NCBI GenBank assembly: GCA_965205915.1
Contig: OZ242191.1
Coordinates: 21,410-85,409 of the forward strand
Length of the DNA stretch: 64,000 nucleotides
Source of the DNA: Dehalococcoidia bacterium
GTDB lineage: Bacteria > Chloroflexota > Dehalococcoidia > UBA6926
Direction: 5' to 3'
The position numbers were made by a program, and so were the translations under genes. Shown one piece after another: positions 1 through 24,104 of the stretch (the first letter of the stretch is position 1; every line of letters starts with the position of its first letter). The notes under the pieces were generated by a model. It did no database searches. It saw only the letters and a program-made list of their open reading frames with translations, and was not told the DNA's origin.

Positions 1-1371
1 GTCACGGGATAGAGGGCGTAGATGAGGACATCGCCGTCGTTCTTGGCGATCTCCTTTGTGGCCTCACGGGCGGCGTCCATCTCCGGATCAAGGATATCGG
101 CGGGGCGGCCTTTCGTGGGTCGGGTTCCACGCTCGTAGCCCTTGAGGGCGATCTTCTGGACGGCTTTGTCCATGGGCAGGGGCGGCTGGCCGTAGAGGCC
201 GTACGCGTAGTCCTTGACCTGCTGGCTGACCAATTCATATCGGCCAAAGAGGACGTTCTGGACGGCCTGGATACCCACAATCTGGCTTGTCGGTGTGACG
301 AGCGGCGGGTAGCCAAGGTCTTTGCGTGTTTGTGGCAGTTCTTCAAGCACCTCCGGCAGGCGGTCGAGGGCGTCGGCCTCGGCGAGTTGGGAGACGAGGT
401 TTGAGGTCATGCCGCCGGGCACCTGGTGGGTGAGCACGCCGGTGTCGATGATGCTGAACTTCTTTGTGTCGAGCAGGTGCATGTATTTCTCTTGCAGGAT
501 CTGCTCGAGACGGTCGCTGGCCGCGATGAGGCGGTCGAGATCAATGCCGGTGTCGCGGGGCGTGCCCTCGAGGGCGACGACGAGCGGCTCCGTTGCGGGG
601 TGGGCGGTGCGGAAGGCGAGCGGAGAAAGGTCGGTATCGACGATATCGACGCCCGCCTCGATTGCCTTGAGCTGGGTCATCTGGCCGAGGCCGGACGTGT
701 AGTGGGTGTGCAGGTGGATTGGAATTGAGACTGCGTCCTTGAGGGCGCTGATGAGATCGTAGGCGTCATAGGGCGCGAGCAGGGCGGCCATGTCCTTGAC
801 GCAGAGGGAGTGCGCGCCCATCTTCTCGATTTCCTTCGCCTTCTTGACGAAGTAGTCGCGGGTGAAAACGGGGCCGCCCATGTGCCGCTCCGTGACGGAG
901 TAGCAAACGGTTCCCTGGATGTGCTTGCCGCTGGCGGCGATGGCTTCAAAGGCCGTTTCAAAGTTGCGGGTGTCGTTGAGGGCGTCAAATACGCGAAAGA
1001 TGTCGATGCCGACTTCAGCGGCCTCCCGGACAAAGGCATGAACGACATCATCGGGGTAGTTGCGGTAGCCGACGAGGTTCTGGCCGCGCAGCAGCATCAT
1101 AAACGGGGTGCGGGGGGCGGCCGACTTGAGGAGTCGGACGCGCTCCCACGGATCCTCATTTAGGAACCGTGTCATCACATCGAATGTTGCGCCGCCCCAA
1201 ACCTCGAAGGCGTGGAAGCCAACATCGTCCAACATGCGGATGATCTCGAGGATGTCGGGCGTCCTCATGCGCGTGGCGAGGATGGACTGGTGGCCATCGC
1301 GCAGGGTGATGTCCGTGATGCCGACGGGCGAGGCGTTGGCTGCAAAGGGGCTTGCGCCGTTCATTGTCATC
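1..1371 (-). CDS. Carboxyltransferase 5S-type subunit (pyruvate carboxylase subunit B / oxaloacetate decarboxylase alpha-like HMGL TIM-barrel); N-terminus complete, 3' end runs off the window
   Basis: Minus-strand translation from ATG at about 1371 reads MTMNGASPFAANASPVGITDITLRDGHQSILATRM...MGAHSLCVKDMAALLAPYDAYDLISALKDAVSIPIHLHTHYTSGLGQM..., which is the conserved carboxyltransferase core. GGGGAG lies 9 nt upstream of the ATG. It is missing from the ORF track only because it runs off the window edge. Confidence 0.8.
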
Positions 1372-1600
1372 AGGATGTTCTCCCCGGAAAGCCGGACACA
1401 TCGCGCCTGCGGAAGGGCAGGGCTTGCTGAGTCCGATTGGTGGCATAGCGCATGCTCATCTGCATGCGGCGACCGCGAGCGCGCCACGCGTCCGTAGAGG
1501 AGGATGCGAGGTTGCGTATGGGGATTTCGTCCTGTTCATACGCCTCGATAGCCGCGATGATCGCGGCGCGCAGGCTTTCGCTGATGCCGTCTGAAGTCAT
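1370..1600 (-). CDS. Small 76-aa ORF between the two carboxyltransferase genes; possibly a small accessory subunit of the carboxylase complex
   Basis: Track ORF MTSDGISESLRAAIIAAIEAYEQDE... fills the gap between the 12S-type gene and the 5S-type gene on the same strand and abuts the 5S start. No recognisable motif. Confidence 0.3.
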   Translation of the reverse strand: MTSDGISESLRAAIIAAIEAYEQDEIPIRNLASSSTDAWRARGRRMQMSMRYATNRTQQALPFRRRDVSGFPGRTS

Positions 1601-1630
1601 GTTTTTTCTTGGTTCGCTCCGCGCCGGGAC

Positions 1631-3181
1631 CTAGAGAGGGATATTCCCGTGCTTGCGGGGCGGCATTGTGTCTCGTTTATTTCGCAGCATACCAAGGGCG
1701 CGAATGATGAGTTTGCGGGTGTCCGCGGGATCGATCACGTCCTCGATGTAGCCTCGTGAGGCTGCAATATAGGGATTGAGGAATTGTTCTTTGTATTCCT
1801 CGATGGCTCGCTGGCGCTCTTCATCAGGGTTTTCGGCGCTGCGGATGCGGTCACGGAAGATGATGTCCGCCGCGCCCTCAGAGCCCATGACGGCCATCTC
1901 CGCGCCCGGCCACGCGTAGCCGATGTCTCCTCTGAGCATCTGGGAGGACATGACAAGGAATGCGCCGCCGTAGGATTTGCGAGTGACGACGCTGACCTTG
2001 GGAACGGTGGCTTCGGCGTAGGCGTAGAGGAGTTTTGCGCCGTGCGTGATGATGCCGCTGTGCTCCTGCTCAACGCCTGGCAGGTAGCCGGGAACGTCCG
2101 TCAGGGTGACGATGGGGATGTTGAAGGCATCGCAGAATCGGACGAATCGGGCGGCTTTGATGGCGGCGTTGATATCGAGCGTGCCGGCGAGAACCATCGG
2201 TTGCTGGGCGACGATGCCGGTTGAGCGTCCGTTGAATCGGGCGAAACCGACGACGATGTTGGCGGCCCATCGAGCGTGAACCTCAAGGAACTCGCTCGAA
2301 TCGACGAGGCAATGAATAACATCGCGGACATCGTAGGGTTCATTCGGATTCACGGGAACCACCTCGCGCAGTTCAGGGCAGAGGCGGTCGGCGGGATCGT
2401 CCGTGGAGAACTCGGGCGCGTCCTCCTCGTTGTTGGAGGGCATGAAGCTGAGGAGTTCGCGCGCGAGGTCGAGACATTCGTCCTCGCCCTGGGCGGCGAA
2501 GTGGGCGACGCCGCTCTGGGTGGTGTGGGTGGTGGCGCCGCCGAGTTGCTCGTGCGTGACGACCTCACCTGTTACGGCGCGAATGACATCCGGGCCGGTG
2601 ATGTACATCTGACCGACGCCGTCTTCCATGATGATGAAATCGGTGATGGCAGGGCTGTAGACCGCGCCGCCGGCGGAGGGGCCCATGATGAGGCTGATCT
2701 GTGGGACGACGCCGGAGGTGAGGACGTTGCGGACGAAGACGTTGCCGTAACCGGCGAGGCTGTCCACGCCCTCCTGGATGCGCGCGCCGCCTGAGTCCAT
2801 GATGCCGATGATTGGCGCGCCGGTCTTCATGGCCATGTCCTGGACCTTGTTGATTTTGCGGGCGGCGGTGAGGGAGAGGGTGCCGCCGAGCACGGTGAAA
2901 TCAAAGGCGTAGATGAAGACGGTTCGGCCATCGATTGTGCCGTAGCCCGTCACGACGGAATCGCCGGGGACCTTGCGGTCGGCGAGGCCAAACTCAAGGA
3001 CGTTGTGGGCGGTGAGGGCGTCCAGTTCGACGAAAGAGTCGGGGTCATATAGGCGTTCGACACGCTCATGCGCGGTTAATTTTCCGCGCGCGTGCTGACG
3101 CTCCACGGCTGCGGCACCGCCACCGGCACGCGAGGCCTCGTGGCGCTTGGCAAGCTCATCGAGCTTTTGGTCCATGCTCAT
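1631..3181 (-). CDS. pccB: Acyl-CoA carboxylase carboxyltransferase beta subunit (propionyl-CoA carboxylase beta / methylmalonyl-CoA carboxyltransferase 12S type)
   Basis: 516 aa and colinear with PccB/AccD5 family: ...TGYGTIDGRTVFIYAFDFTVLGGTLS...IMGPSAGGAVYSPAITDFIIM...TRKSYGGAFLVMSS... Confidence 0.9.
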   Translation of the reverse strand: MSMDQKLDELAKRHEASRAGGGAAAVERQHARGKLTAHERVERLYDPDSFVELDALTAHNVLEFGLADRKVPGDSVVTGYGTIDGRTVFIYAFDFTVLGGTLSLTAARKINKVQDMAMKTGAPIIGIMDSGGARIQEGVDSLAGYGNVFVRNVLTSGVVPQISLIMGPSAGGAVYSPAITDFIIMEDGVGQMYITGPDVIRAVTGEVVTHEQLGGATTHTTQSGVAHFAAQGEDECLDLARELLSFMPSNNEEDAPEFSTDDPADRLCPELREVVPVNPNEPYDVRDVIHCLVDSSEFLEVHARWAANIVVGFARFNGRSTGIVAQQPMVLAGTLDINAAIKAARFVRFCDAFNIPIVTLTDVPGYLPGVEQEHSGIITHGAKLLYAYAEATVPKVSVVTRKSYGGAFLVMSSQMLRGDIGYAWPGAEMAVMGSEGAADIIFRDRIRSAENPDEERQRAIEEYKEQFLNPYIAASRGYIEDVIDPADTRKLIIRALGMLRNKRDTMPPRKHGNIPL

Positions 3182-3295
3182 GGGCTGGTTCAGTCTACCC
3201 CCGAAATGCGCTATTCAACGTGGGGTTATGCTAGCAGAGCTACCCGTTAGATACAATGTTGGGCGGCTTGGGATGGGGGCGTTTGGGGGGTTGGT

Positions 3296-3524
3296 TGGGA
3301 GTGGGGGGCGTTGGATTCCTCGCTGCGCTCGGAATGACAGAGTGGGGCGTGGGAATGACGGAGTGGGGCGTGGGAATGACATGGGGATTGTGATGGGTTG
3401 GCGTTACGGGGTTTGGTTGGGGGAATGTGGGTTTAGATTCCCGCGTTCGCGGGAATGACGGGGTTGGAGGCGGGAATGACGGGGGTGGAGGAAGGGAATG
3501 ACGGAGTGGGGGTTGGTTGGCGGA
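3296..3524. repeat. Intergenic hairpin-repeat cluster (GGAATGAC family) in the pccB/folP divergent region
   Basis: ggattcctcgctgcgctcggaatgacagagtggggcgtgggaatgacggagtggggcgtgggaatgac ... gattcccgcgttcgcgggaatgacggggttggaggcgggaatgacgggggtggaggaagggaatgacgg: a hairpin plus tandem roughly 20-bp units. Confidence 0.85.
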
Positions 3525-3530
3525 GGGGGC

Positions 3531-3552
3531 GGGGCGCGTCGCGACGCGCCCC
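3531..3552. promoter_or_regulatory. Perfect 22-bp palindrome GGGGCGCGTCGCGACGCGCCCC in the divergent pccB/folP intergenic region (candidate operator or hairpin)
   Basis: The sequence equals its own reverse complement and sits about 70-90 nt upstream of the candidate folP start (3592/3622), between two divergently oriented genes. Confidence 0.35.
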
Positions 3553-3621
3553 TACAGGTTAGGTTGCAATTGGGGGTGTGGGAGTTGATGGGTGTTTGAG
3601 TGGGGGCGGCGGACTTATTTG

Positions 3622-4503
3622 ATGGGGATTGTGAACGTTTCGCCTGAGTCGTTTTCGGGGGACGGCTTGGGGGACGTGGATGCTGCTGTCGCGCAGGCGC
3701 TGCGGTTCGTGGAGGAGGGGGCGGACATCCTTGATGTTGGGGGGCAATCGACGCGGCCCCGGTATTCGGCGGCGGTTGAGGTTGGTAGGGCCGCCGCCTT
3801 CGCGGGGGATTCGGGTGGGGCGCGGGGGGATTCGGGTGGGGCCCCCGCCTTCGCGGGGGTGAGGGACAAAGGGTATGACGAGTTGTCCGTTGAGGAGGAG
3901 ATTGGGCGGGTTGTGCCTGTTATCCGGGCCATTAGGGGAAAGACTGACACTCCGATCAGCGTCGATACGTATAAGGCGGGGGTGGCTGAGGCGGCCATAG
4001 AGGCGGGGGCTTCGATTGTCAACGATGTGTGGGGGCTGAAGCGGGATGTAGCGCTGGCGGGGGTGGCGGCTTCGCATGGCACACCGCTTATTTTGATGCA
4101 CAACCAGGAGGGCACGCGGTATACGCGGCTGATTCCGGATGTCGTTGCGAGCTTGCGGCGGAGCGTGGCGATGGCGGTGGCGGCGGGGGTGGCGCGGGAG
4201 CGGATTATCGTCGACCCGGGATTTGGGTTCGGGAAGACTGTCGGTCATAACCTCGAGGTGTTGCGTCGGCTTGGCGAGATCAAGGCGGCGCTGGGGTTGC
4301 CGTTGCTTTTGGGGACGAGTCGGAAGTCGACTATTGGGCGGGTGTTGGATTTACCTGTTGATGATCGTGTCGAGGGAACGGCGGCGACGGTGGCGCTGGG
4401 GATCGCGCAGGGGGCGGACATCGTGCGGATACATGACGTGAGAGAGATGGCGCGGGTTGTGAGGATGACGGACGCGGTGGCGCGCGGCGGGTGGAATGGC
4501 TGA
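3622..4503 (+). CDS. folP: Dihydropteroate synthase, carrying an in-frame insertion of about 30 aa encoded by a repeat element
   Basis: MGIVNVSPESFSGDG...ADILDVGGQSTRP...SVEEEIGRVVPVIRAI...DTYKAGVAEAAIEAGASIVNDVWG...DPGFGFGKT. The track ORF starts 30 nt earlier at 3592. Canonical DHPS N-terminus is MGIxNVTPDSF. Confidence 0.88.
   Translation: MGIVNVSPESFSGDGLGDVDAAVAQALRFVEEGADILDVGGQSTRPRYSAAVEVGRAAAFAGDSGGARGDSGGAPAFAGVRDKGYDELSVEEEIGRVVPVIRAIRGKTDTPISVDTYKAGVAEAAIEAGASIVNDVWGLKRDVALAGVAASHGTPLILMHNQEGTRYTRLIPDVVASLRRSVAMAVAAGVARERIIVDPGFGFGKTVGHNLEVLRRLGEIKAALGLPLLLGTSRKSTIGRVLDLPVDDRVEGTAATVALGIAQGADIVRIHDVREMARVVRMTDAVARGGWNG
3783..3873. repeat. Intragenic copy of the hairpin-repeat family inside folP, retained in frame
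   Basis: gccgccttcgcgggggattcgggtggggcgcggggggattcgggtggggcccccgccttcgcgggggtgag has the same architecture as the intergenic copies at 42816-42900 (ccccgccttcgcgggggattcggg...). It encodes AAVEVGRAAAFAGDSGGARGDSGGAPAFAGVRDKGYDE between the conserved STRP and SVEEE motifs. Confidence 0.7.
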
Positions 4504-5029
4504 CCTCGCCACTGCTTACCTGGGGCTTGGCGCGAATCTTGGCGATCGGGAGCGGGCGCTTAGGGATGCGGTCGCGGAGCTAGGCCGAGATATGAACGTG
4601 GTTGCCGCGTCCTCTTTGTATGAGACGGCGCCGGTGGGGTATTTGGATCAGCCGGCATTCCTTAATGCGTGCGTGGTGGCGCAGACGGAGTTGGGGCCGG
4701 AGGAGCTTCTGGATTTCGTGAAGGGGATAGAGGAACGGGCGGGGCGGGTGGCTAGTTTTCAGAATGCGCCGCGGGTGTTGGACATCGATATCTTGCTGTA
4801 TGTGGATGCGGGCGGGGAGCATGTGGTGATGCAGTCGGAGCGGCTGGAGATTCCGCATCCTCGGATGCATGAGCGGGGGTTTGTGCTGGTTCCGCTTGGG
4901 GAGGTTGCGGGGGGTGTTTTGCATCCGGTGTTGGGGCGGACGGTTGGGGAGTTGAGGGATGAGGTGGGGGATGCTGGGGTCAGCCGCGTTCGCTCAAAAA
5001 CAGATTGGACCAGCGACCAAACACGTTGA
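4496..5029 (+). CDS. folK: 2-amino-4-hydroxy-6-hydroxymethyldihydropteridine pyrophosphokinase (HPPK)
   Basis: MADLATAYLGLGANLGDR...PRVLDIDILLY...EIPHPRMHERGFVLVPL. The start overlaps the folP stop (ATGGCTGA). Confidence 0.85.
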   Translation: MADLATAYLGLGANLGDRERALRDAVAELGRDMNVVAASSLYETAPVGYLDQPAFLNACVVAQTELGPEELLDFVKGIEERAGRVASFQNAPRVLDIDILLYVDAGGEHVVMQSERLEIPHPRMHERGFVLVPLGEVAGGVLHPVLGRTVGELRDEVGDAGVSRVRSKTDWTSDQTR

Positions 5030-5711
5030 TTGCTGCCTCTCTCAGGGCTTCTGCTCGCGCAGGTGTCTCATCCAAAAGAGCGGAAGGTTCGAGGTTGGCG
5101 CGTCGGAGGTCTTCGGGGAATTGGGTTGCCATTTCTTTGATTTGAGCTTCTGTCATTTCCAGGTGGAAGAGTAGGGCGTAGACGTTTTGGTTGTAGGAGA
5201 AGCCTTGTGTTGCAGTCATTTCTGAGGAACCAATGGGGGTTGCGCCTTTGGGTAGATCGTAGATGTCGCCGTGCCAGTGTAGGGGTGTGAAGGTTTCGGG
5301 TAGGGCGGAGAGGACGGGGTTGTTGGCGGCGTGCTCGGAGCGTTTGACGGGTTTCCAGCCTAATTCGGGGGCGGGGCCGGGGTGGACTTCTGAGCCGAGA
5401 ACGTCGGCGATTACCTGGCTGCCGAGGCAGACGCCGAGCAGGGGAATGTTGTTGTCGATGGCCTGTCGGGCGAGTTGTTTTTCGGCGCGTAGGTAGGGGT
5501 ATTTGTGCTCTTCGTAGACGGACTGGGGGCCGCCCATGATGATGAGGCCGGCGTAGTTTTCCAGCGTGGTGGGAGTGGTTTGAGCGAGGTCGGTGCGGAT
5601 GGTTTCGACCTGCGCGCCAGCGTGTCTCAGCGCTTCAAGGATTAGGCCGGGGTGTTCGGGATCGGCGTGTTGGAGGACGAGGACGCGGGGGGCGGGGTTG
5701 GTGTCGGTCAT
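4980..5711 (-). CDS. Class I glutamine amidotransferase-like protein
   Basis: MTDTNPAPRVLVLQHADPEHPGLILEAL...GLIIMGGPQSVYEE...IPLLGVCLGSQV (GATase1 Cys-containing motif). Start chosen at the internal Met of the track ORF. Confidence 0.7.
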   Translation of the reverse strand: MTDTNPAPRVLVLQHADPEHPGLILEALRHAGAQVETIRTDLAQTTPTTLENYAGLIIMGGPQSVYEEHKYPYLRAEKQLARQAIDNNIPLLGVCLGSQVIADVLGSEVHPGPAPELGWKPVKRSEHAANNPVLSALPETFTPLHWHGDIYDLPKGATPIGSSEMTATQGFSYNQNVYALLFHLEMTEAQIKEMATQFPEDLRRANLEPSALLDETPARAEALREAAINVFGRWSNLFLSERG

Positions 5712-5727
5712 AGAGTGGGCCTTTGCG

Positions 5728-6162
5728 TCAGATGGAATGTTCCCATTCGTCAAGGCGGACGGGGTCCAGTCTTTCGATACCATCTATCCGATCAAAGTCG
5801 GTGTCGGCAGAGATGATGTGGGTTATGCCAAGCCGTTGCATGACGGCTGTGTGGATGAGGTCGCGGGCGTCTATGCGCGGATAGCGTTCGACCATTTGTC
5901 CCGCGAGAATGACGTCATCCGCGTAGACGGGTTCAATGCGGCCTTGCATTGTCTCGGCGAATTGATTCAGTGCCACCCGGCCTTCCGGCCAACGACGCGC
6001 GGCGACGTAATAGTGAATGATCTCCTGCAGGGCCTCGGAATCCGTGAAGAAGGCGCTTCGATCAGCCGTCACCATGTTGAGGATGCGCAGGCATGGCTGT
6101 CTGTATCGATGCTCCCGGCCGACCGCATAGATCGGTATGTTGGTATCAATAAAGAGGGCCAA
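5728..6162 (-). CDS. vapC: PIN-domain toxin (VapC family)
   Basis: MALFIDTNIPIYAVGREH...DARDLIHTAVMQRLGITHIISADTDFDRI. It is paired with an overlapping upstream small RHH ORF. Confidence 0.8.
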   Translation of the reverse strand: MALFIDTNIPIYAVGREHRYRQPCLRILNMVTADRSAFFTDSEALQEIIHYYVAARRWPEGRVALNQFAETMQGRIEPVYADDVILAGQMVERYPRIDARDLIHTAVMQRLGITHIISADTDFDRIDGIERLDPVRLDEWEHSI

Positions 6163-6397
6163 TGTTACCGGACTGCCTGATTATTCTGCGGATGTCTTGC
6201 GGGTCTTCGGGGACGGGAAGGCTCAGGGACTTCATTATTTCAACGGCTCGCCGACGCCTTGCGCGGTCGATTTCTTCGTAGGCGTCATCAATGAGTTGGC
6301 GGACTACTTCGGAGATTGGGGCGCCCTTTTCGCGCGCCAGTTCTTCCAAGCGCGAGCGACGCTCGGGGTCGAGTCGGACTTCCAACCTGTGAGCCAT
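6146..6397 (-). CDS. vapB: Ribbon-helix-helix antitoxin (VapB/CopG-like)
   Basis: 83 aa, MAHRLEVRLDPERRSRLEELAREKGAPISEVVRQLIDDAYEE. Its stop overlaps the vapC start. Confidence 0.7.
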   Translation of the reverse strand: MAHRLEVRLDPERRSRLEELAREKGAPISEVVRQLIDDAYEEIDRARRRRAVEIMKSLSLPVPEDPQDIRRIIRQSGNIGPLY

Positions 6398-6514
6398 TTC
6401 TGCTCCTCTGTACGGTTGTTACTGTACGGCTATTGTCTGCCGTACATGGAGTGGAGTCAATGGGGGGAGGGGGAGTGTTGGATGGCGGTAAGAGGTTTGG
6501 TTGGGGGATGGAGG

Positions 6515-6590
6515 TTAAGATTCCCGCGTTCGCGGGAATGACGGAGTGGGGGAGCGGGAATGACGGAGTGGGGGGCGGTTCGCGTTGTGG
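6515..6590. repeat. Hairpin repeat plus two tandem units
   Basis: gattcccgcgttcgcgggaatgacggagtgggggagcgggaatgacggagtgggggg. Confidence 0.85.
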
Positions 6591-6612
6591 CGTGGTGGGG
6601 GGTTCTTGTAGA

Positions 6613-7338
6613 ATGCAGAGGCTTGTCAGATTCATCATGAAGCTGGACCTTCACGTTCATACTAATTTCGGTTCTTCCGATAGTGGCCTATCGCCGCAGG
6701 AGCTTGTGGTGGCCGCGAAGGCGGTCGGGCTTGATGGCGTCTGCGTCACGGAGCATGGCACCGTCTGGGATAACTACCAGCTCGAGCGATTCTCTGCGGA
6801 ACATGATTTCCTCGTGATACCGGGGATGGAGGTCGCGACGGATCTTGGCCACATCACATGCTTTGGGCTGCCAGGGTACGCGGCCGGCATCCACCGCGCT
6901 GAGATCCTGCGGCGGGTCATCATGGCGTCGGACGGGATCATGGTCGCCGCGCACCCGTTTCGGCGCATGTTCGATGACCCCCGCATCAGCGGCTGGCAAA
7001 AACAGTATTCCCTGGAGGAGGCGGTCGAGTTGCCGATCTTCAAGCTGACGGACGAGATGGAGGTCGTGAACGGGGCGAATAACGCGCCGGAGAACCTGTT
7101 TGCGCTACAGGTGGCACGGGCGCTTGGGCGTAGGGGAGTCGGAGGCGGGGACGCGCATTCGACATCCGGCATAGGCTCCGGCGCGATTGTCACTGAGCGT
7201 CGAATCTCTACTGTGGAGGAGTTTATCGAGGAGATACGCGAGGGCCGCTATTACCCGACCGGCTCGATAATCCAGGGGAGCGACAGGTCGTATTGGGATG
7301 AGCGTGCAGATGATCTTGCCGCGGCAGGCGCGCGATGA
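6613..7338 (+). CDS. PHP-domain metal-dependent phosphoesterase
   Basis: MQRLVRFIMKLDLHVHTNFGSSDSGLSPQELVVAAKAVGLDGVCVTEHGT...AAHPFR. The track ORF extends upstream through the repeat; an alternative start is 6637 (MKLDLHVH). Confidence 0.7.
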   Translation: MQRLVRFIMKLDLHVHTNFGSSDSGLSPQELVVAAKAVGLDGVCVTEHGTVWDNYQLERFSAEHDFLVIPGMEVATDLGHITCFGLPGYAAGIHRAEILRRVIMASDGIMVAAHPFRRMFDDPRISGWQKQYSLEEAVELPIFKLTDEMEVVNGANNAPENLFALQVARALGRRGVGGGDAHSTSGIGSGAIVTERRISTVEEFIEEIREGRYYPTGSIIQGSDRSYWDERADDLAAAGAR

Positions 7339-10166
7339 CCACTGCGGCCGGACCCGTCCCGTTCCCGCAGACGTTCGTTTCGCTCGACCTTGAAACGACA
7401 GGGCTGAATTCGGATAGCGACCGCATCATCGAGGTTGGCGCGGTAAAGGTGGTGGGCGGGGAATTTGTCGACAGCTTTCAGCGCCTTATCAACCCCGGGC
7501 ACACGCTGCCTGATTTCGTGTCTGTCCTAACTGGCATTACTGACGCCGATCTTGTAGGCGCGCCGCCGTTTGGGGACGTGGCGGAGGAGCTTGCGGCGTT
7601 TATCGGCGACCTGCCGATGGTGGGACAGAATTATCGATTTGACCTTGGGTTCCTGAACGCGGGTGGGGTGAGTCCGACCGGTCCGGTGTACGACACGCTG
7701 GATATGTCGCGCATCTTGCGACCTTCGGCGGCGAATCACGGTCTTGGGTGGCTCATCGAGGAGTTGGACATCCGTAACGACAGTCCGCACCGGGCGCTAG
7801 CGGACGCGGAGGCGACGGCGCACGTTTTCCAGGAGTTCTGGAACAGGATTCACGGTCTCGATCCGGTGACGATTGCGATGATTCGTTCGCTGGTTGACCG
7901 AGCGCCGGGCGAGTGGAGCGCGGGGGCGGTGTTTGACCTGGCTGCCCGAGAGCGTGGAATTGCCGCCGGTGGGCCCGAGGGCGTGATCCGGCGGCTGACG
8001 GAGCGGCTTGGACGTCCGAGTGTGGAGTCCGAAACGCGGCAGCGTCGGTTGCCGGCGACGGAGGCCGGTGGGGCGGCCATCGCGGCTGTATTTGAAAAGG
8101 ACGGCGGACTTGGGCGGGCGCTCGATGAATCATATGAGCCTCGAACTCAGCAGTTAGAGATGGCGCAGGCAGTGCTGGAGATACAGGAGGCCGGGGGAAC
8201 GCTGCTGCTGGAAGCGCCGCCGGGGACGGGAAAGTCGCTGGGTTATCTGATTCCGGCCATGTGGCGGGCGGAGGCGGGCGAGGAGCAGGTCGTCGTTGCG
8301 ACATCGACGCGTGGCTTGCAGGAGCAGTTGGCGGCCAAGGATGTTCCCATCGCGCTACAGGCGCTTGGGCTGTCTTCGGACGATTTCCGGGTGGCCCTGC
8401 TCAAGGGCAGGGGGAACTATCTGTGCATCTCGCGTCTGCTGTCGCGACTGGGCAATCTTGAAGTGACGGCCGGCGATGCCGCGTTCCTGGCTCGGCTGCT
8501 GGTGTGGCTGGAATCAACGGAGAGCGGTGATCTCGGTGAACTGCCGATAGGCGAACAGGAGGCGGCGCGGTGGTCGAGCCTGTCCGCCGGTTCAGAGGAG
8601 GGGCATAGAAACTGCGCGTATGAGCGTGAGGGGCACTGTTTCATTGGGCGGGCTCGCCGCGCCGCGCAGGCCGCGCACCTTGTGATTACGAATCATGCGC
8701 TGCTGCTCGCGGATTCGTCGGCGGGTAGCGGCGTGCTTAAGGACGTCCCGCACATCATCCTTGATGAGGCGCACAACCTTGAGCGAGAGGCGACGGATCA
8801 TTACACCCGCAGCATTTCCCATACCGAGGTGAACGAGCTGCTCGCGGCATTGGGTTCAGACTCCGATGATGGACGGCCACGGATTGTGGTGACGGCGCTG
8901 GCGGGTTCCGAGCAGGGCGGTGGTTCTCGCAGGGCCGAGATTGAGGCCGCGGGGGCAGAGGTTGCGGCGGCGGCTCGAAACGCGGCGACTAGCGCCGGAC
9001 AGTTCTTCAGGGCAGTTGGCGTGATGACTGCGGGGGCGCGCTCCGACCGGGGAGGCGAGGCCGTTCGGCTCACGCAACAGGCGCGGGAGACGGAAGAATG
9101 TCGTGAGGTGGCGCGCGCGTGGGAGGACCTGGACGGGACTCTTAGCGCCGTGAACAACCTGGTAGATTCGCGGCTGCGCTCGGCGTTGCAGACGCAGCAG
9201 GGGCGACAGGGGCCATCGACGGATGTGGACGATGCAATGCGCCGTATATCTGACGTAAGGGAACGTCTGCAACGCGTGATGAGTGGGACGAATCCTGACG
9301 AGGACATCACATGGCTGGAGTTGCCGCGAGATCAGCGGCGTGGTGTCTCTTTGAACTGGGCGCCGATGACAGTCGCGCCGCATCTTGCGAGCGGACCATT
9401 TAACGAACGCAAGTCGATTGTGCTGGCGAGCGCGACGCTGACGACGGACGGCTCGTTCGGGTTCATCAGCGAACGACTGGGACTTGAGGAGCCATCCGAA
9501 AAGCGGCTGAGTCTCGGGCTGGCCCCGGAGGATGCGGCGGCGGCGATGGTTCCCATGGACGTGCCTGATCCGAATAGCAATGCCTACGGCAGGGCCGTTC
9601 AGCAGGCCATCGTTGATGTTGCGACGGCGACGGGGGGTGGGGTGCTGGCGCTGTTCACGTCGCACGCGTCGCTCCGCGAGACGTACACGAAGATTAGCTC
9701 CGTGCTGCGTGAGCGGGATATCAGCGTGCTGGCGCAGGGCATCGACGGGCCGCCGGATCGGTTGGCGGAGATTGCGCGGCTTCGCAAGGGAATCGTCATT
9801 CTTGGGGCGGCGGCGTTCTGGGAGGGTGTGGATCTACCGGGCGACGCGCTACGGGCGCTGATCGTCGCGCGGCTGCCGTTTGATGTGCCATTCGATCCCA
9901 TCATCGCGGCGCGGGGCGAGACGTATGAGAACTCGTTCAGCGAGTTCCAGATTCCGCGCTCGCTGTTGAGATTCAAGCAGGGCGTGGGGCGACTGATTCG
10001 GAGCACAAAAGATCAGGGCGTGATTGTTGTGCTCGACTCGCGTGTGCTCAACAGGGGGTATGGCGCGGCGTTCATCGACGCGCTGCCGACGCCGACGGTA
10101 CTGACGCCGCCGCTGGACCGGTTGGGCGATCAGGTTCGGGAGTGGTTCGGCGGCGATGGCGAGTGA
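7335..10166 (+). CDS. dinG: DinG-family ATP-dependent helicase with an N-terminal DnaQ-like 3'-5' exonuclease domain
   Basis: FVSLDLETTGLNSDSDRIIEVGAV...HRALADAEAT (exonuclease motifs), then EAPPGTGKSL...DEAHNLE (helicase motifs I/II). 943 aa. Confidence 0.85.
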   Translation: MTTAAGPVPFPQTFVSLDLETTGLNSDSDRIIEVGAVKVVGGEFVDSFQRLINPGHTLPDFVSVLTGITDADLVGAPPFGDVAEELAAFIGDLPMVGQNYRFDLGFLNAGGVSPTGPVYDTLDMSRILRPSAANHGLGWLIEELDIRNDSPHRALADAEATAHVFQEFWNRIHGLDPVTIAMIRSLVDRAPGEWSAGAVFDLAARERGIAAGGPEGVIRRLTERLGRPSVESETRQRRLPATEAGGAAIAAVFEKDGGLGRALDESYEPRTQQLEMAQAVLEIQEAGGTLLLEAPPGTGKSLGYLIPAMWRAEAGEEQVVVATSTRGLQEQLAAKDVPIALQALGLSSDDFRVALLKGRGNYLCISRLLSRLGNLEVTAGDAAFLARLLVWLESTESGDLGELPIGEQEAARWSSLSAGSEEGHRNCAYEREGHCFIGRARRAAQAAHLVITNHALLLADSSAGSGVLKDVPHIILDEAHNLEREATDHYTRSISHTEVNELLAALGSDSDDGRPRIVVTALAGSEQGGGSRRAEIEAAGAEVAAAARNAATSAGQFFRAVGVMTAGARSDRGGEAVRLTQQARETEECREVARAWEDLDGTLSAVNNLVDSRLRSALQTQQGRQGPSTDVDDAMRRISDVRERLQRVMSGTNPDEDITWLELPRDQRRGVSLNWAPMTVAPHLASGPFNERKSIVLASATLTTDGSFGFISERLGLEEPSEKRLSLGLAPEDAAAAMVPMDVPDPNSNAYGRAVQQAIVDVATATGGGVLALFTSHASLRETYTKISSVLRERDISVLAQGIDGPPDRLAEIARLRKGIVILGAAAFWEGVDLPGDALRALIVARLPFDVPFDPIIAARGETYENSFSEFQIPRSLLRFKQGVGRLIRSTKDQGVIVVLDSRVLNRGYGAAFIDALPTPTVLTPPLDRLGDQVREWFGGDGE

Positions 10167-11136
10167 ACCGGACGGCGTGACGGCGGCGCACATCGAGTTG
10201 GCGTGGCCGCTGGACTTGCCGGCGTCGCTGGATGAGGGCCAGGCTTTCGGTTGGACTGCGCCGGAGCGCGAGGACGGCGGGTGGTGGATCGGGACGGTGT
10301 ACGGCCATGCCGTCCGTATCCGGCACGTTGATGGCAGCCCTGACACACCCGGCGCGCTTGATGTTGAGGCGCATGATGCCGGGCCGGGGAATGACGCGGC
10401 GGCGGCGATGGTAACGCGGTATCTGAGGTTGGATGACGACCATGAGGCCATTTGGCGTGATTTATCCCGGGATGCCGTGCTTGGCGAGATCATGGGGCGT
10501 TGGTCGGGCTTGAGCGTGTTGCGACAGGCGCCGTGGGAGTGCCTGGCGAGTTTCATCATCAGCGCGCAATGCCATTTGCCGCGCATTAAGAGGAACATGC
10601 AGAACCTCGCGGAGGCGTGCGGTGTGAGCAGCACTGCGTGGGGGCAGACGGTCTATCGCGTCCCTGAGCCGGACGCCGTGGCGCGACTGGGTGAGATGCG
10701 CCTTCGGGAGATCGGGCTGGGGTTTCGCGCGCCGTTTCTCGCGTCGGCTGCCATCAGGATTGCAGAGGGCGAAATCGATCTCGACGCTCTTTGTGAGTTG
10801 TCGTATGAGGAGTCAAAGGGCGAGCTGCTGACATTCAAGGGCATTGGGCCGAAGATCGCCGACTGCATCCTCGCGTTTTCGCTGGATCACATGGAGGCAT
10901 TTGCGGTGGATCGGTGGGTGAGCCGCGCAGTGACTCGTCTCTATATGGATGGGGCAAAGACGGCGGAGGACAAGATTTCGGCGTGGGGGCGGGAGCGATT
11001 CGGCAAGTATGCCGCCTATGCCCAGCAGTTGTTGTTCCAGGAGGAACGAGAGGTGGCGATGCGGGAGCGCGGGTTGCCAGGGAGCGTCATGATCCGGCAG
11101 AGGCGGCAGAATCGCGCGCTTTCCACTGCCGGATAA
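10156..11136 (+). CDS. HhH-GPD superfamily DNA glycosylase (AlkA/Ogg-like)
   Basis: ...LASFIISAQCHLPRIKRNMQNL...LLTFKGIGPKIADCILAFSLDHMEAFAVDRWVSR (helix-hairpin-helix Gly/Pro-rich loop followed by a catalytic Asp). Confidence 0.75.
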   Translation: MASEPDGVTAAHIELAWPLDLPASLDEGQAFGWTAPEREDGGWWIGTVYGHAVRIRHVDGSPDTPGALDVEAHDAGPGNDAAAAMVTRYLRLDDDHEAIWRDLSRDAVLGEIMGRWSGLSVLRQAPWECLASFIISAQCHLPRIKRNMQNLAEACGVSSTAWGQTVYRVPEPDAVARLGEMRLREIGLGFRAPFLASAAIRIAEGEIDLDALCELSYEESKGELLTFKGIGPKIADCILAFSLDHMEAFAVDRWVSRAVTRLYMDGAKTAEDKISAWGRERFGKYAAYAQQLLFQEEREVAMRERGLPGSVMIRQRRQNRALSTAG

Positions 11137-12364
11137 GCGCTATTTCACCCTCCATTTGCAGGACGAGGCCGTCAAGGCGGTCGTCACGTAGTTGATTGAG
11201 ATATTTGCCGATCCGTGGGCCCTGCGGCACGCCGAGTTCGAGGAGGTCATTGCCGTCGAGTTCCGGCCTGACGTGTCTCCACGTGCCGAGATATGAGGCA
11301 ATGGATCGTGCTTCAGGGGCATCGCCGGTGAGGTAGATGGCAGCGAGGGCGGCGGGTTCGAACAGGGCCAGCGCGCTCGAGATGAGGCTTGGCCGGCCGG
11401 ACTCTGACGCCTCGCGGAACTTTGTCAGGCCGTCCGCTTTCCACAGCTGAATGTCGTCAACGGCGCGTCGCGAGCTGCCCATGAGATTGAACGTGTTGAC
11501 GAGGGCTCCATAGTTCTGGCCGACAGTTGTGGCCACCAGGGCCCAGTAAACATCCAAGATGTCGGCGTCGTCCGGTCTGACAGCGGCCTCGCGGTCTGAC
11601 AGTGAGATGTTAAAGAGACCGTTGACCCAATTGGACGCGGTGGGGATGTGGTCAAGCACACCCCAGGATTGGAGCATGTACAGCCCCTCAATGGGCTTTT
11701 CTTCTCGCCAAAGCCTGTTGAACTCATTGCGGAGCCGATCAGGCCCCACCATCTTGATGTTGAGGGCGTCGCTCTTGAGCCATGTTTCCGTGTCGGCGTG
11801 GAGCTTGAATCGGAGGCGTGATGCGTAGCGGGCGGCGCGAATAATGCGCGTGGGGTCATCGCGAAATGAGGCGGGATGCAGGGCGCGCAGGACACCGGCC
11901 TGGACATCATTTATGCCCCGATGCGGGTCAATGATGCGCCCAAAATCCATTGAGCCGATGGAGGCCGCTATCGCGTTGGCCGCAAAGTCGCGCCGTCCGA
12001 GGTCGTCCTCAATGTTGGCGGGTGTGACATGAGGCAGCGCGCCGGGCGACGCATAGGTCTCTCTTCGGGCGGTCGCAATGTCGATGTCCCGGGCGCCGAC
12101 GGTCAGTTTGATGGTCATGAACTGCGATACTGCCGTTCTGCGCGCGAGGCGCGCCTGAACGGCCATCTGGGCCAGCTCTTCCGCGTTGCCCTGTATGACG
12201 AGGTCCACCTCATCGAGCTGTCGGCCAAGCAGGATGTCCCGCACCGCGCCGCCGACGATGTAGAGCGTGCCAGGCTCCGCCAGACCGCCGAGCGTGCGGC
12301 ATGTCTCCATGAGGTCCGGCGGGAGCGCCTGCCCCAATTCCAGCGCAATGCTGTTGGTCATCAT
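11087..12364 (-). CDS. cca: CCA-adding tRNA nucleotidyltransferase / poly(A) polymerase family
   Basis: MMTNSIALELG...YIVGGAVRDILLGRQLDEVDLVIQG...RRDFAANAIAASI. Start placed at the internal MM just downstream of an AT-rich intergenic stretch. The track ORF's N-terminal 100 aa overlap the intergenic region. Confidence 0.8.
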   Translation of the reverse strand: MMTNSIALELGQALPPDLMETCRTLGGLAEPGTLYIVGGAVRDILLGRQLDEVDLVIQGNAEELAQMAVQARLARRTAVSQFMTIKLTVGARDIDIATARRETYASPGALPHVTPANIEDDLGRRDFAANAIAASIGSMDFGRIIDPHRGINDVQAGVLRALHPASFRDDPTRIIRAARYASRLRFKLHADTETWLKSDALNIKMVGPDRLRNEFNRLWREEKPIEGLYMLQSWGVLDHIPTASNWVNGLFNISLSDREAAVRPDDADILDVYWALVATTVGQNYGALVNTFNLMGSSRRAVDDIQLWKADGLTKFREASESGRPSLISSALALFEPAALAAIYLTGDAPEARSIASYLGTWRHVRPELDGNDLLELGVPQGPRIGKYLNQLRDDRLDGLVLQMEGEIALIRQWKARDSAASAGS

Positions 12365-12476
12365 GGATATATGATTGCACGTCAGGCAATTGCTTTGACT
12401 CACTGGGACGGGCATTCTAGAATCTAATTGCGAAACAAAAAAGATTTGAGCCAAAGTGGGCTCTGTGGAGGTATCC

Positions 12477-12716
12477 GTGGCAACAGAGGTTGGCACAAAG
12501 CCGGTGGTGTACACACTGACGACGTGCCCGGCGTGCGTTGTGATGAAAGAGGATTGGACAAAGCAGGGTCTCGAGTTCGAGGAGCGCCAGGTCGATGAGA
12601 ACCAGGCGTGGCTGGATGAGGCGCGCACGTTCGGCGACGTCGTGCCCATCGTCGTGTACCCGGACGGCAAGGTGACGATGGGCTACAAGGACATGATCAG
12701 TTGTAATATAGGGTAG
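12477..12716 (+). CDS. Glutaredoxin-like (NrdH/Grx) small redox protein
   Basis: GTG start 5 nt after GGAGG. VATEVGTKPVVYTLTTCPACVVMKEDWTKQGLEFEERQVDEN...VVPIVVYPDGKVTMG (CPAC thioredoxin-fold motif). Confidence 0.6.
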   Translation: MATEVGTKPVVYTLTTCPACVVMKEDWTKQGLEFEERQVDENQAWLDEARTFGDVVPIVVYPDGKVTMGYKDMISCNIG

Positions 12717-12771
12717 ATATGGTACGGACCCACAGTATGAAAGCACCGTCCGAGAAATAGGAGAGAACGCA

Positions 12772-13353
12772 ATGGCTGAGAAGACAACGGTGGTATCGCC
12801 TGAGCGATTTGGGTCGGGTTTCGCGTACGACGACTACATCGCACAGATCAAGGTCAATAAGGATAAGTTCGAGCAGTATTACGAGAGCGCGCAGCTTACG
12901 GACGACGATGTGACGTTCTTCCGTCGGGCGAAAGAGGCGGGCGCGACGAAGATGCTGATCATCGGCGAGGACTGGTGCCCGGATGTGTTCCGGGGGATGC
13001 CGGTCCTGGCAAAGATCGCCGAGGCGGCGGGCATGGAAGTCAGTGTTTTGCCCCGTGACGAGAACCTGGACGTGATGAACGAGTTTCTGAAGGAAGGCGA
13101 GTACTTGTCCATTCCTGTGCCGGTGTTCTACACCGATGACATGGATGAGATTGCGCATTGGCATGAGCGCCCCGTCGCCGCGAATGAGGAGATGCCGAAG
13201 ATCAACGAGGATACGAAGGCTGAGATGCCGGACGCGGACGAGCAGGCGGTCCGACTCGCGGTTCGTGAGCGGATGCAGGCCCGTTACCCGGCCTGGCAGG
13301 TGGAGACGGTGAGAGAGTTGCGCGATCTGCTTGCGGAGAAGCTGGCCCTCTAA
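12772..13353 (+). CDS. Thioredoxin-fold family protein
   Basis: 193 aa. ...KMLIIGEDWCPDVFRGMPVLAKIAE... (a single-Cys WCP motif in thioredoxin-like context). Confidence 0.45.
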   Translation: MAEKTTVVSPERFGSGFAYDDYIAQIKVNKDKFEQYYESAQLTDDDVTFFRRAKEAGATKMLIIGEDWCPDVFRGMPVLAKIAEAAGMEVSVLPRDENLDVMNEFLKEGEYLSIPVPVFYTDDMDEIAHWHERPVAANEEMPKINEDTKAEMPDADEQAVRLAVRERMQARYPAWQVETVRELRDLLAEKLAL

Positions 13354-13388
13354 TTCCGAAGAGCCACTCCCACACGACTTGAGCCCTG

Positions 13389-13901
13389 ATGCCAACCACT
13401 GAACCGAATAACGTAAGTTCAGCCGAGAAGCATCTCGGTATCGTTTTCCGTGACAAGAGTTTATTGCAGCAAGCGTTGCTGCACGCTTCTCGTGTCAACG
13501 AGCATGAGGGCCTTACCGCAAGGGATTCAAACAGGCGACTTGCGTTTCATGGGGACGCCACGTTGTCTCATGCCATCGTACTGATGCTCAACAGGTATGA
13601 GGAATTGGCGGACGTGGATGAGGGCAACTTGACGATTCTTCGGCAGAAGCTGGTCAATGGCCAGACACTTGCGGAGATTGCCGGCGAGCTGCGGATCGGT
13701 GAATGCCTGTTGCTTGGCAAAGGCGAAGAGAGTTCCGCCGGCAGAAGCAGGATCAGCAACCTTGAGGACGCGCTGGAGGCCGTGATTGGAGCGATTGAGC
13801 TTGATCAGGGCTTTGAGGGGGCGCTTAAGTTTGTGAAACAGCATTTTGGGCCCCGATTGAGGGATCTTGTCAAGAAAGGCGGCGACGCAAATGACACCTA
13901 G
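13389..13901 (+). CDS. Mini-ribonuclease III (RNase III catalytic domain only, no dsRBD)
   Basis: FRDKSLLQQALLHASRVNEH...NRRLAFHGDATLSHAIVLML...EDALEAVIGAIELD (RNase III signature). 170 aa. Confidence 0.7.
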   Translation: MPTTEPNNVSSAEKHLGIVFRDKSLLQQALLHASRVNEHEGLTARDSNRRLAFHGDATLSHAIVLMLNRYEELADVDEGNLTILRQKLVNGQTLAEIAGELRIGECLLLGKGEESSAGRSRISNLEDALEAVIGAIELDQGFEGALKFVKQHFGPRLRDLVKKGGDANDT

Positions 13902-14024
13902 TGGAATTGCAGGAACTCATGCGGGGCACGTGCAGGCTTCGTCTGAGATATGTGGACATCGATAACTGTTCTGGCATGAACGGCGTTTACTAAAGAGACA
14001 ATCCGAAACTCTGAGGTGTGACTA

Positions 14025-17706: not shown

Positions 17707-18348
17707 ATGAGTTTGGATGGCGACCGGGAGGATTCAGGGGGTCTGGGTGTTCGCCCACTAATCGGTATCGCGGCGCTCGTGCTGGTGGTTGGGCTTGGCA
17801 TTGGCGGAGCTTTTGCCATTGGACTCCAGATTGGTCGTGGGCAATCCGAGGTCGTGGAAGAACCACCGCAGCTCGCAATCACGGCGGAACAACCCGTCAC
17901 GGAAGAGATTGCGCCCGGGGAGTTTGTTACGAATGCGCCGGGGGGAGAGATTCCGCCCGCTGCTTTGCAACGCCTACGCGCAGAGGGAGCTTCAGAGGAG
18001 GACATTGCTGCAATTCGCGCCCAATTTTCGCAATTCCAGGGTGGTCAACAGGGTTCTGGGCAGGGACGGCCGGGATTCGCGGCGGGCACGGGTGATGCCG
18101 ATGCTGCGGGGATCGGGACGCGGCTGACAGGAACCATTGAGTCCATCGATGGCGACGTGATTACGCTCATGACGCCGGCGGGATCGCAACGTATTTCAAC
18201 TATTTCCGGCACGCGCATCACCATCACGCAGGCCGGTGATATTGATGACCTTACCGTTGGGGATCGGGTGACGATTGCCGCGGTGGCCGGACCGGAGCCG
18301 GACGTGCTGGAAGCGGCGAGTATCACGTCAGTGTCTACTGAGGAGTAG
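17707..18348 (+). CDS. Membrane-anchored hypothetical protein, possibly co-transcribed with the MacAB-like genes
   Basis: 213 aa, single TM (LIGIAALVLVVGLGIGGAFAIGL), Gly/Gln-rich linker and a C-terminal beta-rich domain. GGAAAAGAG lies upstream of the ATG. Confidence 0.5.
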   Translation: MSLDGDREDSGGLGVRPLIGIAALVLVVGLGIGGAFAIGLQIGRGQSEVVEEPPQLAITAEQPVTEEIAPGEFVTNAPGGEIPPAALQRLRAEGASEEDIAAIRAQFSQFQGGQQGSGQGRPGFAAGTGDADAAGIGTRLTGTIESIDGDVITLMTPAGSQRISTISGTRITITQAGDIDDLTVGDRVTIAAVAGPEPDVLEAASITSVSTEE

Positions 18349-18406
18349 GGCGGGGGCTGCGCGGGTGGCTTGGCGGTACTGAGGTTGGTTGCGCTCCGAG
18401 ATTAAG

Positions 18407-18652
18407 ATTCCCGCGTTCGCGGGAATGACGGGTGGGGGCGCGGGAATGACGGGTGGGGGCGCGGGAATGACGAGTGGGGGCGCGGGGATGACGGGTGGGG
18501 GCGCGGGAATGACGGGTGGGCGGCGCGGGGATGACGGGTGAGGGCGCGCGGGTGGGGGCGGTGGAATGACGGGTGGGGGCGCGGGGATGACGGGTGAGGG
18601 CTGCGGGAATGACGGGTGAGGGCTGCGGGAACGACGGGTGGTGGCGCGGGAA
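18407..18652. repeat. Hairpin repeat followed by about 12 tandem 22-bp units (GCGGGAATGACGGGTGGGGGCG)
   Basis: gattcccgcgttcgcgggaatgacgggtgggggcgcgggaatgacgggtgggggcgcgggaatgacgagtgggggcgcggggatgacgg.... Units abut directly and there are no spacers. Confidence 0.9.
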
Positions 18653-22380: not shown

Positions 22381-22520
22381 GCGGTAGGGCGTATTTTCGA
22401 CAACCGTGTAGAGAGAGGCGTGCGGGCTGCGCTTTCGCCCAGCCCGCACGCCTTCTTTTTTGTGCCTCGCCCACCAAGACATTCAATTGCGCGTAGACTG
22501 CGTGGCAGGGGAGTGATGCC

Positions 22521-23966: not shown

Positions 23967-24002
23967 TCCACTGGCTTGCCCCCCACCGCGTAGTATGGAT
24001 AG

Positions 24003-24080: not shown

Positions 24081-24104
24081 ACTGCGTGGCAGGGGAGTGA
24101 TGCC

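Follow-up and report, generated by a model that had tools for sequence, protein, structure and literature searches.

The 64,000-nt stretch of DNA analysed here (the window), from contig OZ242191.1 of a Dehalococcoidia bacterium (assembly GCA_965205915.1, positions 21,410 to 85,409), carries folP, the gene for dihydropteroate synthase (DHPS), with a piece of hairpin repeat DNA inside its coding sequence. The sequence-only reading, made from the letters of the window, had described this piece as an in-frame and translated copy of a repeat that also occurs between genes. Here, we analysed the insert, its match to the dispersed repeats of the window and the corresponding site in relatives. The DNA of nine orthologous loci (L081 to L089) was compared with the window, while labels beginning with P denote FolP protein calls.

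Results

An intact folP gene with an enlarged loop 2

The folP gene lies at the following positions of the window:
3592 to 4503, + strand: folP, coding sequence of DHPS, 303 aa, intact (open reading frame list, Pfam and PDB matches)
3739 to 3759, + strand: GGQSTRP codons, the conserved N-terminal part of DHPS loop 2 with Thr-Arg-Pro of the para-aminobenzoic acid (pABA)/sulfonamide pocket (alignment)
4496 to 5029, + strand: folK (HPPK), its start overlapped by the end of folP (Pfam)

The folP open reading frame (ORF) is open over 303 aa, as the sequence-only reading had stated, and matches Pterin_bind (PF00809) with E = 7.8e-74 in Pfam, the match being broken into two stretches around the insert. 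Solved DHPS structures match FolP down to 1.6e-79 (phmmer against the DHPS chains of the PDB). In the phmmer alignment to the B. anthracis enzyme 1tws, FolP residues 6-59 end at GGESTRPGFA and residues 94-297 restart at GFAKVSVEEE. Loop 2 of FolP holds ~34-37 residues more than that of canonical DHPS, ~13 of which form a clade-wide linker and 24 of which (72 nt) are repeat-derived relative to the empty allele of the clade. FolP has the properties expected of a PF00809 host gene, namely a pterin-binding TIM barrel, the conserved Asn, Asp, Lys, Arg and His and the residues of loops 1 and 2. In an alignment of 48 sequences, N15, F21, T54-R55-P56, D125, N144, D208, K245, R279 and H281 are invariant, and so are the loop-2 columns G50, G51, S53, T54, R55 and P56.

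An AlphaFold model of FolP, computed with 48 homologs, is a confident TIM barrel (pTM 0.81; pLDDT of at least 90 at 173 residues), in which the sole long segment with pLDDT below 50 runs from residue 53 to residue 94, with strand 46-50 before it and helix 100-115 after it. According to this model, the insert falls within loop 2 of DHPS, which links strand beta2 to helix alpha2, and is predicted to be disordered. The surface loop proposed earlier is thus confirmed as a loop; its position is not arbitrary, since it corresponds to the catalytic loop 2 of DHPS, which contributes to the pABA/sulfonamide pocket (PMC6057106). When the variable segment was left out, dN/dS of folP was 0.04-0.17 in every comparison, and FolP outside the loop is, judged by these ratios, under strong purifying selection. 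The gene order carboxyltransferase<-folP->folK->GATase<- is common to the loci of all relatives.

The insert derives from dispersed repeats

The repeat-derived block in folP spans 3790-3870 and contains, in this order, a hairpin with an imperfect stem, a pair of tail units of ~21 nt and a hairpin with a perfect stem, which are listed here with their borders and with the two intergenic copies of the same type:
3760 to 3789, + strand: left part of the clade-specific loop-2 linker, RYSAAVEVGR; G-rich; borders the landing site on the left (GTTGAGG.GGG in relatives)
3791 to 3808, + strand: type-A hairpin copy 1, CCGCCGC-CTTC-GCGGGGG; one stem mismatch, perfect in the L085 copy
3802 to 3821, + strand: tail unit 1 (3' arm + ATTCGGGTGGGGC), 20 nt; overlaps the 3' arm of hairpin 1
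3822 to 3842, + strand: tail unit 2 (GCGGGGGGATTCGGGTGGGGC), 21 nt or 7 codons (ARGDSGG); Tandem Repeats Finder array 3812-3842
3842 to 3859, + strand: type-A hairpin copy 2, CCCCCGC-CTTC-GCGGGGG; perfect 7-bp stem
3860 to 3870, + strand: right junction TGAGGGACAAA; relatives read TGACGGACAAA, a CGTC tag beside the stem on the reverse strand, of which the window has the CCTC variant
3871 to 3900, + strand: GYDELSVEEE, right border of the landing site (GGGTATGA); start of helix alpha2
42807 to 42831, + strand: intergenic type-A copy, exact 25-mer
42856 to 42880, + strand: intergenic type-A copy, 25-mer with 1 mismatch

The DNA quoted in the sequence-only reading corresponds to 3793-3863 and its peptide to FolP residues 60-97. 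It had been proposed that the insert shares a hairpin + ATTCGGG + TGGGG architecture with the copies at ~42.8 kb, and this held. The similarity exceeds a GC-rich background by far. Allowing up to 3 mismatches, the 18-mer CCCCCGCCTTCGCGGGGG has 6 matches in the window versus 0.30 expected, and the 25-mer CCCCCGCCTTCGCGGGGGATTCGGG has 3 (at 3791, 42807 and 42856) versus 0.00 expected from 100 shuffles. The module of tail unit 1 recurs intergenically at 42818-42831 and 42867-42880 and in L084 from 15460, and the intergenic copy in this relative (from 15449) is identical to the folP copies over ~34 nt including flank and tail. All element types found at folP are dispersed as well, mostly between genes, over the loci compared. 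In every type, the copies at folP extend past the stem into element-specific flanks (cccgatgg followed by ATTCCGGC, caccctaa followed by CCCTCTCCC, ccgttc followed by GCCCT). At the level of nucleotide identity, these comparisons demonstrate that the folP insert derived from a repeat family dispersed between the genes of this genome.

Searches elsewhere were negative: the exact 25-mer has no match in JGI metagenome contigs, the clade being present only in ENA assemblies; a query of 42 aa, concatenated from insert peptides, gave 160 word-sharing candidates among proteins and none at E <=10; and no Rfam family matches the window at gathering thresholds. Like the intergenic arrays, the insert contains a G-quadruplex motif (3804-3829). 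Its predicted tryptic peptides are AAAFAGDSGGAR and GDSGGAPAFAGVR.

Close relatives bear different repeats at the same site

The Chloroflexota/Dehalococcoidia FolPs obtained by protein search are 57-95% identical and 265-334 aa long. From GGQSTRP to EEE, canonical DHPS has 17 residues, the empty allele of the clade 30 and the filled alleles 36-62. The empty allele has the protein pattern RPRYSA.VEAG.AAS-GYEELSVEEE, with GCGGGCGGGGCGGCAAGCGGG as linker DNA. Identity of the flanking DNA to the window is ~97% in L085, L086 and L081 and ~94% in L087. The loop alleles are the following:
Window and L085: hairpin-tail-unit-hairpin
L086: one type-A hairpin
P0004: one unit + hairpin
L087: hairpin-tail-hairpin (30-nt tandem)
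L084, P0002, P0005 and P0007: type-A hairpin + units + D1 (CACCCTAACCCTCTCCC-AGA-GGGAGAGGG)
L089: D1 only
L081: two type-B copies (ATTCCGGC-TTTC-GCCGGAAT)
L082 (sister clade): type C (GCCCT-TCGACAGGCTC-AGGGC-GAACGG)
L088 (sister clade): D2 (CCCTCCCCC-ACCAA-GGGGGAGGG)

Every member of the window's own clade carries at least one element in the loop, most other sister-clade members have an empty site, and the copy number of tail unit 2 among relatives is 0, 1 or 2. The L082 loop exceeds the empty L083 loop by 33 nt, exactly the length of the type-C element. Three different alleles (L085, L086 and L089) were found within one sample. Altogether, one ~20-nt stretch of folP hosts at least five palindromic families that are unrelated to each other (A, B, C, D1 and D2), all of them in frame, and the encoded loop peptides are wholly different between alleles. 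The landing zone of all families lies between GTTGAGG.GGG and GGGTATGA, with entry points ~10 nt apart between families, as type C abuts GGGTAT and D2 lies upstream of it. A GGTAT direct repeat (3761 and 3872) was considered as a target-site duplication and rejected, as both copies are conserved folP codons that are kept in empty alleles.

Since the repeats at this position, or their copy numbers, differ among close relatives, folP loop 2 is, on the evidence of these alleles, a recurrent landing pad for repeats. The five unrelated families imply at least five acquisitions, a count that is independent of any tree; insertion counts from a neighbour-joining tree were downgraded in favour of the family number because folP shows signs of recombination. 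As expected from the sequence-only reading, the insert is lineage-specific: the element type occurs only in FolPs at least ~85% identical, many sister-clade sites are empty, the canonical stretch has 17 residues, and the same insert was not seen in unrelated taxa among the orthologs aligned. Its suggestion that the element is or was recently mobile is borne out, as recent mobility or instability, by the different alleles in genomes with ~97% identical flanks.

Within the syntenic block (1-12361), folP is the most divergent gene, with 7.0% and 8.1% mismatches to the two closest genomes, compared to ~1-4% for most neighbours, and with dN/dS there of ~0.09-0.17. As this extra divergence is synonymous, it suggests that folP alleles were imported by recombination.

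All alleles keep the reading frame

All 12 of the 12 non-empty folP alleles are in frame, although types B, B2 and D1 hold TGA or TAA in other frames. Because every allele keeps the frame despite these stops, we infer read-through translation of the insert as the parsimonious reading. Of the earlier statement that the insert is translated, the conserved frame is thus observed in all alleles and translation itself is deduced from it. Two broken calls were inspected (P0011 and L089), and both resemble homopolymer errors on low-coverage contigs rather than effects of the insert. P0051/L089 was considered as an insert allele that breaks the frame and was discarded, since its frame is shifted by one surplus A in a homopolymer (L089 region 3040-3056), which lies ~60 nt downstream and belongs to a 7x contig. 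L084 has split genes, and homopolymer frameshifts occur occasionally in the related low-coverage long-read assemblies, for which reason the exact G-run lengths in the repeat modules of relatives need caution.

For an indel census, window positions 1-14510 were aligned with four close relatives, of which 1-12380 is truly syntenic (12 genes, ~11 kb coding). Indels of at least 6 nt are confined there to three kinds of place: the intergenic repeat arrays, the junction of folP and folK, and loop 2 of folP. Over the ~11 kb of coding sequence, this loop is the sole coding site affected. Among the perfect hairpins counted across all of the window, no repeat copy except that of folP is internal to a real gene, the rest lying at ORF edges. 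Hence, the idea that such elements create new peptide segments in core proteins would apply to folP, and the data do not extend it to core proteins in general, since folP is the sole gene with an internal copy in the ~220 kb examined.

At the folP/folK junction, the two genes overlap at 4494-4507 in the window and are separated in L081 (~10925-11048) and L087 (~10853-10981) by a D1-like element and a B2 repeat with leader (~110-130 nt), by which the FolP C-terminus is altered. The C-terminal end of the FolP call P0025 is a translated B2 repeat, and the type-A loop peptide APAFAGVT is read in the same frame as the B2-derived IPAFAGMT of this tail. Another call, P0012 (L082, ~10035), starts with ..LDSRFRGNDGG.., and its start was probably called inside an upstream repeat.

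The dispersed repeats resemble CGTC-tagged REPs

The dispersed repeats of the window are clustered repetitive extragenic palindromes (REPs):
3276-3504, 6475-6578, 18396-18652, 27874-27960 and 31277-31470, + strand: repeat clusters (repeat scan)
32237-33752, 42740-42910, 49376-49505, 59224-59306 and 61275-61321, + strand: repeat clusters (repeat scan)
3276 to 3504, + strand: the REP cluster just upstream of folP, with leader, ATTCCCGC-GTTC-GCGGGAAT hairpin and GGGAATGACGG tail units

Each of these one-strand clusters has a head hairpin (aGATTCCCGCGTTCGCGGGAATGACGG), behind which only the 3' arm and a G-rich tail recur, as 1-11 tandem units of 21 nt. In the arrays 18396-18652 and 32365-32531, for example, one complete hairpin is followed by 7-11 tandem 21-nt units of tag and one arm (CGCGGGAATGACGGGTGGGGG). 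Over the whole window, the + strand has 36 occurrences of the tail core CGGGAATGACGG (1 mismatch allowed) and the - strand has 0, whichever way the genes run (30 on + and 14 on -). G-quadruplex motifs number 30 on + and 2 on -, and GC skew is positive throughout. Comparison of filled and empty intergenic sites indicates that the full intergenic element includes a ~50-nt leader and that elements sit in G-runs without clean target-site duplication. A sigma-70 promoter in the ~50-nt leader found no support. The content of cluster 3276-3504 is polymorphic among relatives. A ~40-nt run that is almost wholly G follows the REP hairpin at 59267-59306, and two long perfect palindromes unrelated to the REP families lie at 25843-25889 (18-bp stem, 11-nt loop) and 22416-22453 (14-bp stem, 10-nt loop).

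CGTC-tagged REPs are defined by an unpaired tag (CGTC, or TGTC/CCTC), a stem of 8-9 bp whose first two pairs are A-T, a loop of 4-5 nt, a short tail close to CCA and the lack of an associated transposase (PMC3733652). The class, described by Di Nocera, De Gregorio & Rocco (2013, BMC Genomics 14:522), takes in dRS3 of Neisseria and the Rickettsia palindromic elements (RPEs) RPE-4 and RPE-6 of R. conorii; its members are mostly head-to-head dimers, with clusters being rare (PMC3733652). In-frame intragenic GTAG and CGTC REPs are known, and different REPs lie near one site in Xanthomonas recB (PMC3733652). On the reverse strand, the main element of the window reads CGTC, ATTCCCGC, GAAC, GCGGGAAT, C(C/T)A, thus having an unpaired tag, an 8-bp stem starting with AT, a 4-nt loop and an untagged end that is CCA in some copies. 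As in the CGTC class, several families are present per genome and copies occur in frame within a gene. No transposase was seen among the main ORFs up to ~55.7 kb. The parallel to in-frame RPE insertions drawn earlier is therefore apt, as the main repeat fits the definition of a class that includes RPE-4 and RPE-6.

The features agree with the definition to different degrees. Intergenic B2 reads GCGGGAAT-GACG on the + strand and CGTC-ATTCCCGC on the reverse strand, and the terminal folP hairpin of L085, L086 and L087 likewise has the tag (GCGGGGG-TGACGG, or CGTCA-CCCCCGC), while GAGG in the window corresponds to the CCTC variant. Stems of 8 bp starting with A-T are found in intergenic B and B2 (ATTCCCGC/GCGGGAAT). 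The loops CTTC, GTTC and TTTC are of the expected length. The tails at the untagged end are ..ATGG, then ATTCC, in type B (CCA on the reverse strand), CTT or CTA in B2 and CCC or CCT in type A. In contrast, the type-A stem at folP (CCCCCGC/GCGGGGG) has 7 bp with outer pairs C-G instead of A-T. In sequence, type A hence looks like a relative of CGTC REPs, not a typical member, and like a compensatory variant in which T-A changed to C-G twice. Types C, D1 and D2 differ from CGTC and GTAG REPs in having neither tag. The organisation deviates as well: instead of head-to-head dimers, the window has arrays that run head to tail and reiterate nothing but the tag and one arm, in 21-nt units of up to 11 copies, all on one strand (36 versus 0). 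The class has not been reported from Chloroflexi.

Other genes of the window

An amidase gene (PF01425) at 35621-37129 has one in-frame TGA (36206-36208) at the conserved Gly of its signature (GTDT*GSIRNP). This TGA is conserved in 5 of 5 loci (the window, L082 at 17912-17914, L083, L084 and L088). A hairpin at 36221-36238, 12 nt 3' of the TGA, shows a compensatory change between the window (ACCCAT/ATGGGT) and L082 (ACCCGT/ACGGGT). The TGA is a candidate for selenocysteine or other recoding, rather than the mark of a pseudogene. About six paralogous genes at 45093-61282 encode proteins of ~530-720 aa with a conserved ~300-nt block and Pro/Thr-rich linkers; those scanned have no Pfam match, and near-identical segments lie 12.4 kb apart among them (47125-48517 and 59503-60889). 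Four tandem Yip1-domain paralogs are located at 22521-25541 and two tandem paralogs of Uma2, a putative restriction endonuclease, at 37193-38400.

Discussion

How should an enzyme under strong purifying selection come to carry so many different repeats in one loop? We consider it probable that the folP linker is a permissive landing pad, which REP-type elements entered repeatedly and which was then remodelled under selection in steps that keep the frame. REP modules, in the window two hairpins and two ~21-nt units of 3' arm and tail, would enter the linker, which lies in loop 2 towards its C-terminal half and is rich in G and weakly constrained, and different lineages would pick up different repeat families within ~20 nt of it. 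The one-strand orientation suggests that entry may be linked to single-stranded DNA or to replication. The ribosome would read the modules as a disordered extension of the loop. Between the direct repeats, slippage or unequal recombination may add or remove 21 or 30 nt at a time, so that the frame is kept, and homologous recombination of folP alleles between strains probably shuffles the loop alleles relative to the tree. Selection would purge all frame-breaking or stop-bearing variants, and what survives would be a tolerated, probably near-neutral and hypervariable peptide beside conserved catalytic residues.

Several points weigh against this reading. Translation of the insert is deduced from frame conservation, and the alleles were gathered via intact protein calls, by which frame-broken alleles are under-sampled; the call P0011 has a local double frameshift. 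The main ORFs of the window up to ~55.7 kb include no transposase by Pfam. The folding energy of the 91-nt insert is at the level of shuffled sequences (-42.3 versus -42.2 kcal/mol, z = -0.04); it was thus dropped as evidence for a hairpin, and the repeat origin was argued from sequence identity and not from thermodynamics. As folP is more divergent than its flanks, recombination confounds event counts based on trees. The presence of an element in all members of the window's clade could mean that the hairpin or the peptide is selected for. Finally, the hotspot may be caused by target preference (for G-runs, or for the REP clusters nearby on both sides of folP) or by mere tolerance: targeting is inseparable from permissiveness because clean target-site duplications are absent and entry points lie ~10 nt apart.

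A more adaptive scenario appears unlikely to us, namely a contingency locus in which in-frame changes in the length of loop 2 adjust the binding of pABA or the response to inhibitors of the sulfonamide kind, with repeats as a source of fast slippage. Here, 21/30-nt slippage units would vary the loop, and alleles would recombine and be kept because DHPS inhibitors, natural or anthropogenic, exert a fluctuating selection. Such a locus would fit the place of loop 2 in the pABA/sulfonamide pocket (PMC6057106), the repeated acquisition at one site with three alleles in one sample, the retention of an insert by all members of the window's clade and the rank of folP as the most divergent gene of the block. 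It would also recall S. pneumoniae folP, in which sulfamethoxazole resistance arises from insertions of 3 or 6 bp at a mutational hot spot between Arg58 and Ile66 (PMC3886935). Those insertions or duplications are likewise in frame and affect the same STRP...EEE stretch, but under drug selection they duplicate local sequence and so add 1-2 residues, whereas here 7-32 residues come from dispersed repeats and lie farther from Thr-Arg-Pro, so that both size and origin differ. Moreover, the inserts begin at least 8 residues past Thr-Arg-Pro and are predicted to be disordered, and the extra divergence of folP is synonymous (dN/dS ~0.09-0.17).

We regard it as quite improbable that the hairpin is selected as a nucleic-acid element, be it for RNA processing or stability, as a pause, or as a protein-binding or G-quadruplex site, with the peptide as a by-product. 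Structure is indeed kept without sequence, as five stems of 6-9 bp, mostly perfect, occur at one position, at least one of them in every member of the window's clade, and the G-quadruplex motif at 3804-3829 resembles those of the intergenic arrays. However, most of the sister clade has none, the stems match dispersed copies, such that recent origin explains their perfection, the first hairpin of the window is already mismatched, folding does not differ from shuffles, and there is no Rfam match.

Three further explanations have very little probability. An old, clade-specific loop extension merely resembling GC-rich repeats would account for a clade loop 2 that exceeds the canonical one by 13 residues, is variable and G/A/S-rich and has no hairpin in many members; it is contradicted by the 25-mer matches (0.00 expected), the ~34 nt identity to the intergenic L084 copy and the empty and differently filled alleles of close relatives, and it is thereby ruled out for the 72 nt at 3790-3861 and possible only for the 13-residue baseline linker. 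An artefact, in which repeat reads were collapsed into folP, might be suspected because related assemblies are low-coverage long-read contigs with homopolymer frameshifts (L089, L084, P0011), but the same four-module architecture recurs in another strain (L085, ~3% divergent), and twelve independent in-frame alleles all lie in the same syntenic gene. Ribosomal bypassing, known from T4 gene 60 and the mitochondrial byp elements, also involves what look like GC-rich hairpin inserts in coding regions, yet an untranslated insert is hardly credible here, since bypassing would not impose the constraint that all alleles remain in frame and free of stops while B, B2 and D1 hold TGA/TAA elsewhere.

The landing pad also differs from other known mobile repeats. 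RPEs (Ogata et al. 2000), as described in PMC10969869 and PMC3733652, are palindromic inserts placed in frame in functional protein genes at positions compatible with the fold; RPE-1 is given there as ~100-150 bp long, with a conserved peptide, once per gene in many genes. Measured against these descriptions, the folP insert is similar in being in frame within an open 303-aa ORF, in a disordered loop (53-94) and in a protein with dN/dS of 0.04-0.17 outside the loop. In contrast, its modules have 18-33 nt and their peptides differ between alleles, a distinction drawn from size and peptide, as the RPE consensus was not searched, and one gene holds at least five families with copy-number alleles at one site that are polymorphic between strains. 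GTAG REPs and REPINs, associated with REP-associated tyrosine transposases (RAYTs; Y1 transposases similar to those of IS200/IS605), share with the present repeats short GC-rich hairpins that are abundant, intergenic and strain-variable, and the one-strand bias recalls elements that target one replication strand (PMC6006769). Unlike them, the window has GTAG only before the folP copies (GGTAGG; intergenic type-A copies read GGTGG), no inverted doublets and no RAYT/Y1 transposase among the ORFs scanned. Miniature inverted-repeat transposable elements differ by their 15-30 bp terminal inverted repeats and clean target-site duplications, neither of which appeared in the comparisons of filled and empty sites.

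In-frame palindromic inserts such as RPEs and intragenic GTAG/CGTC REPs are established. What is new is that at least five repeat families have settled at a single site in an essential enzyme, in the loop of its drug and substrate pocket, and that copy-number alleles differ among strains with ~97% identical flanks, some within one sample. New as well are CGTC-type REPs in Chloroflexota, with an odd organisation that is strictly confined to one strand and reiterates half-units of tag and arm. As no mobilising enzyme is known for CGTC REPs, the natural series of filled, empty and remodelled sites, found in near-identical genomes, is useful for studying how such repeats move and grow, and the alleles of folP allow one to ask how much sequence a catalytic loop can absorb.

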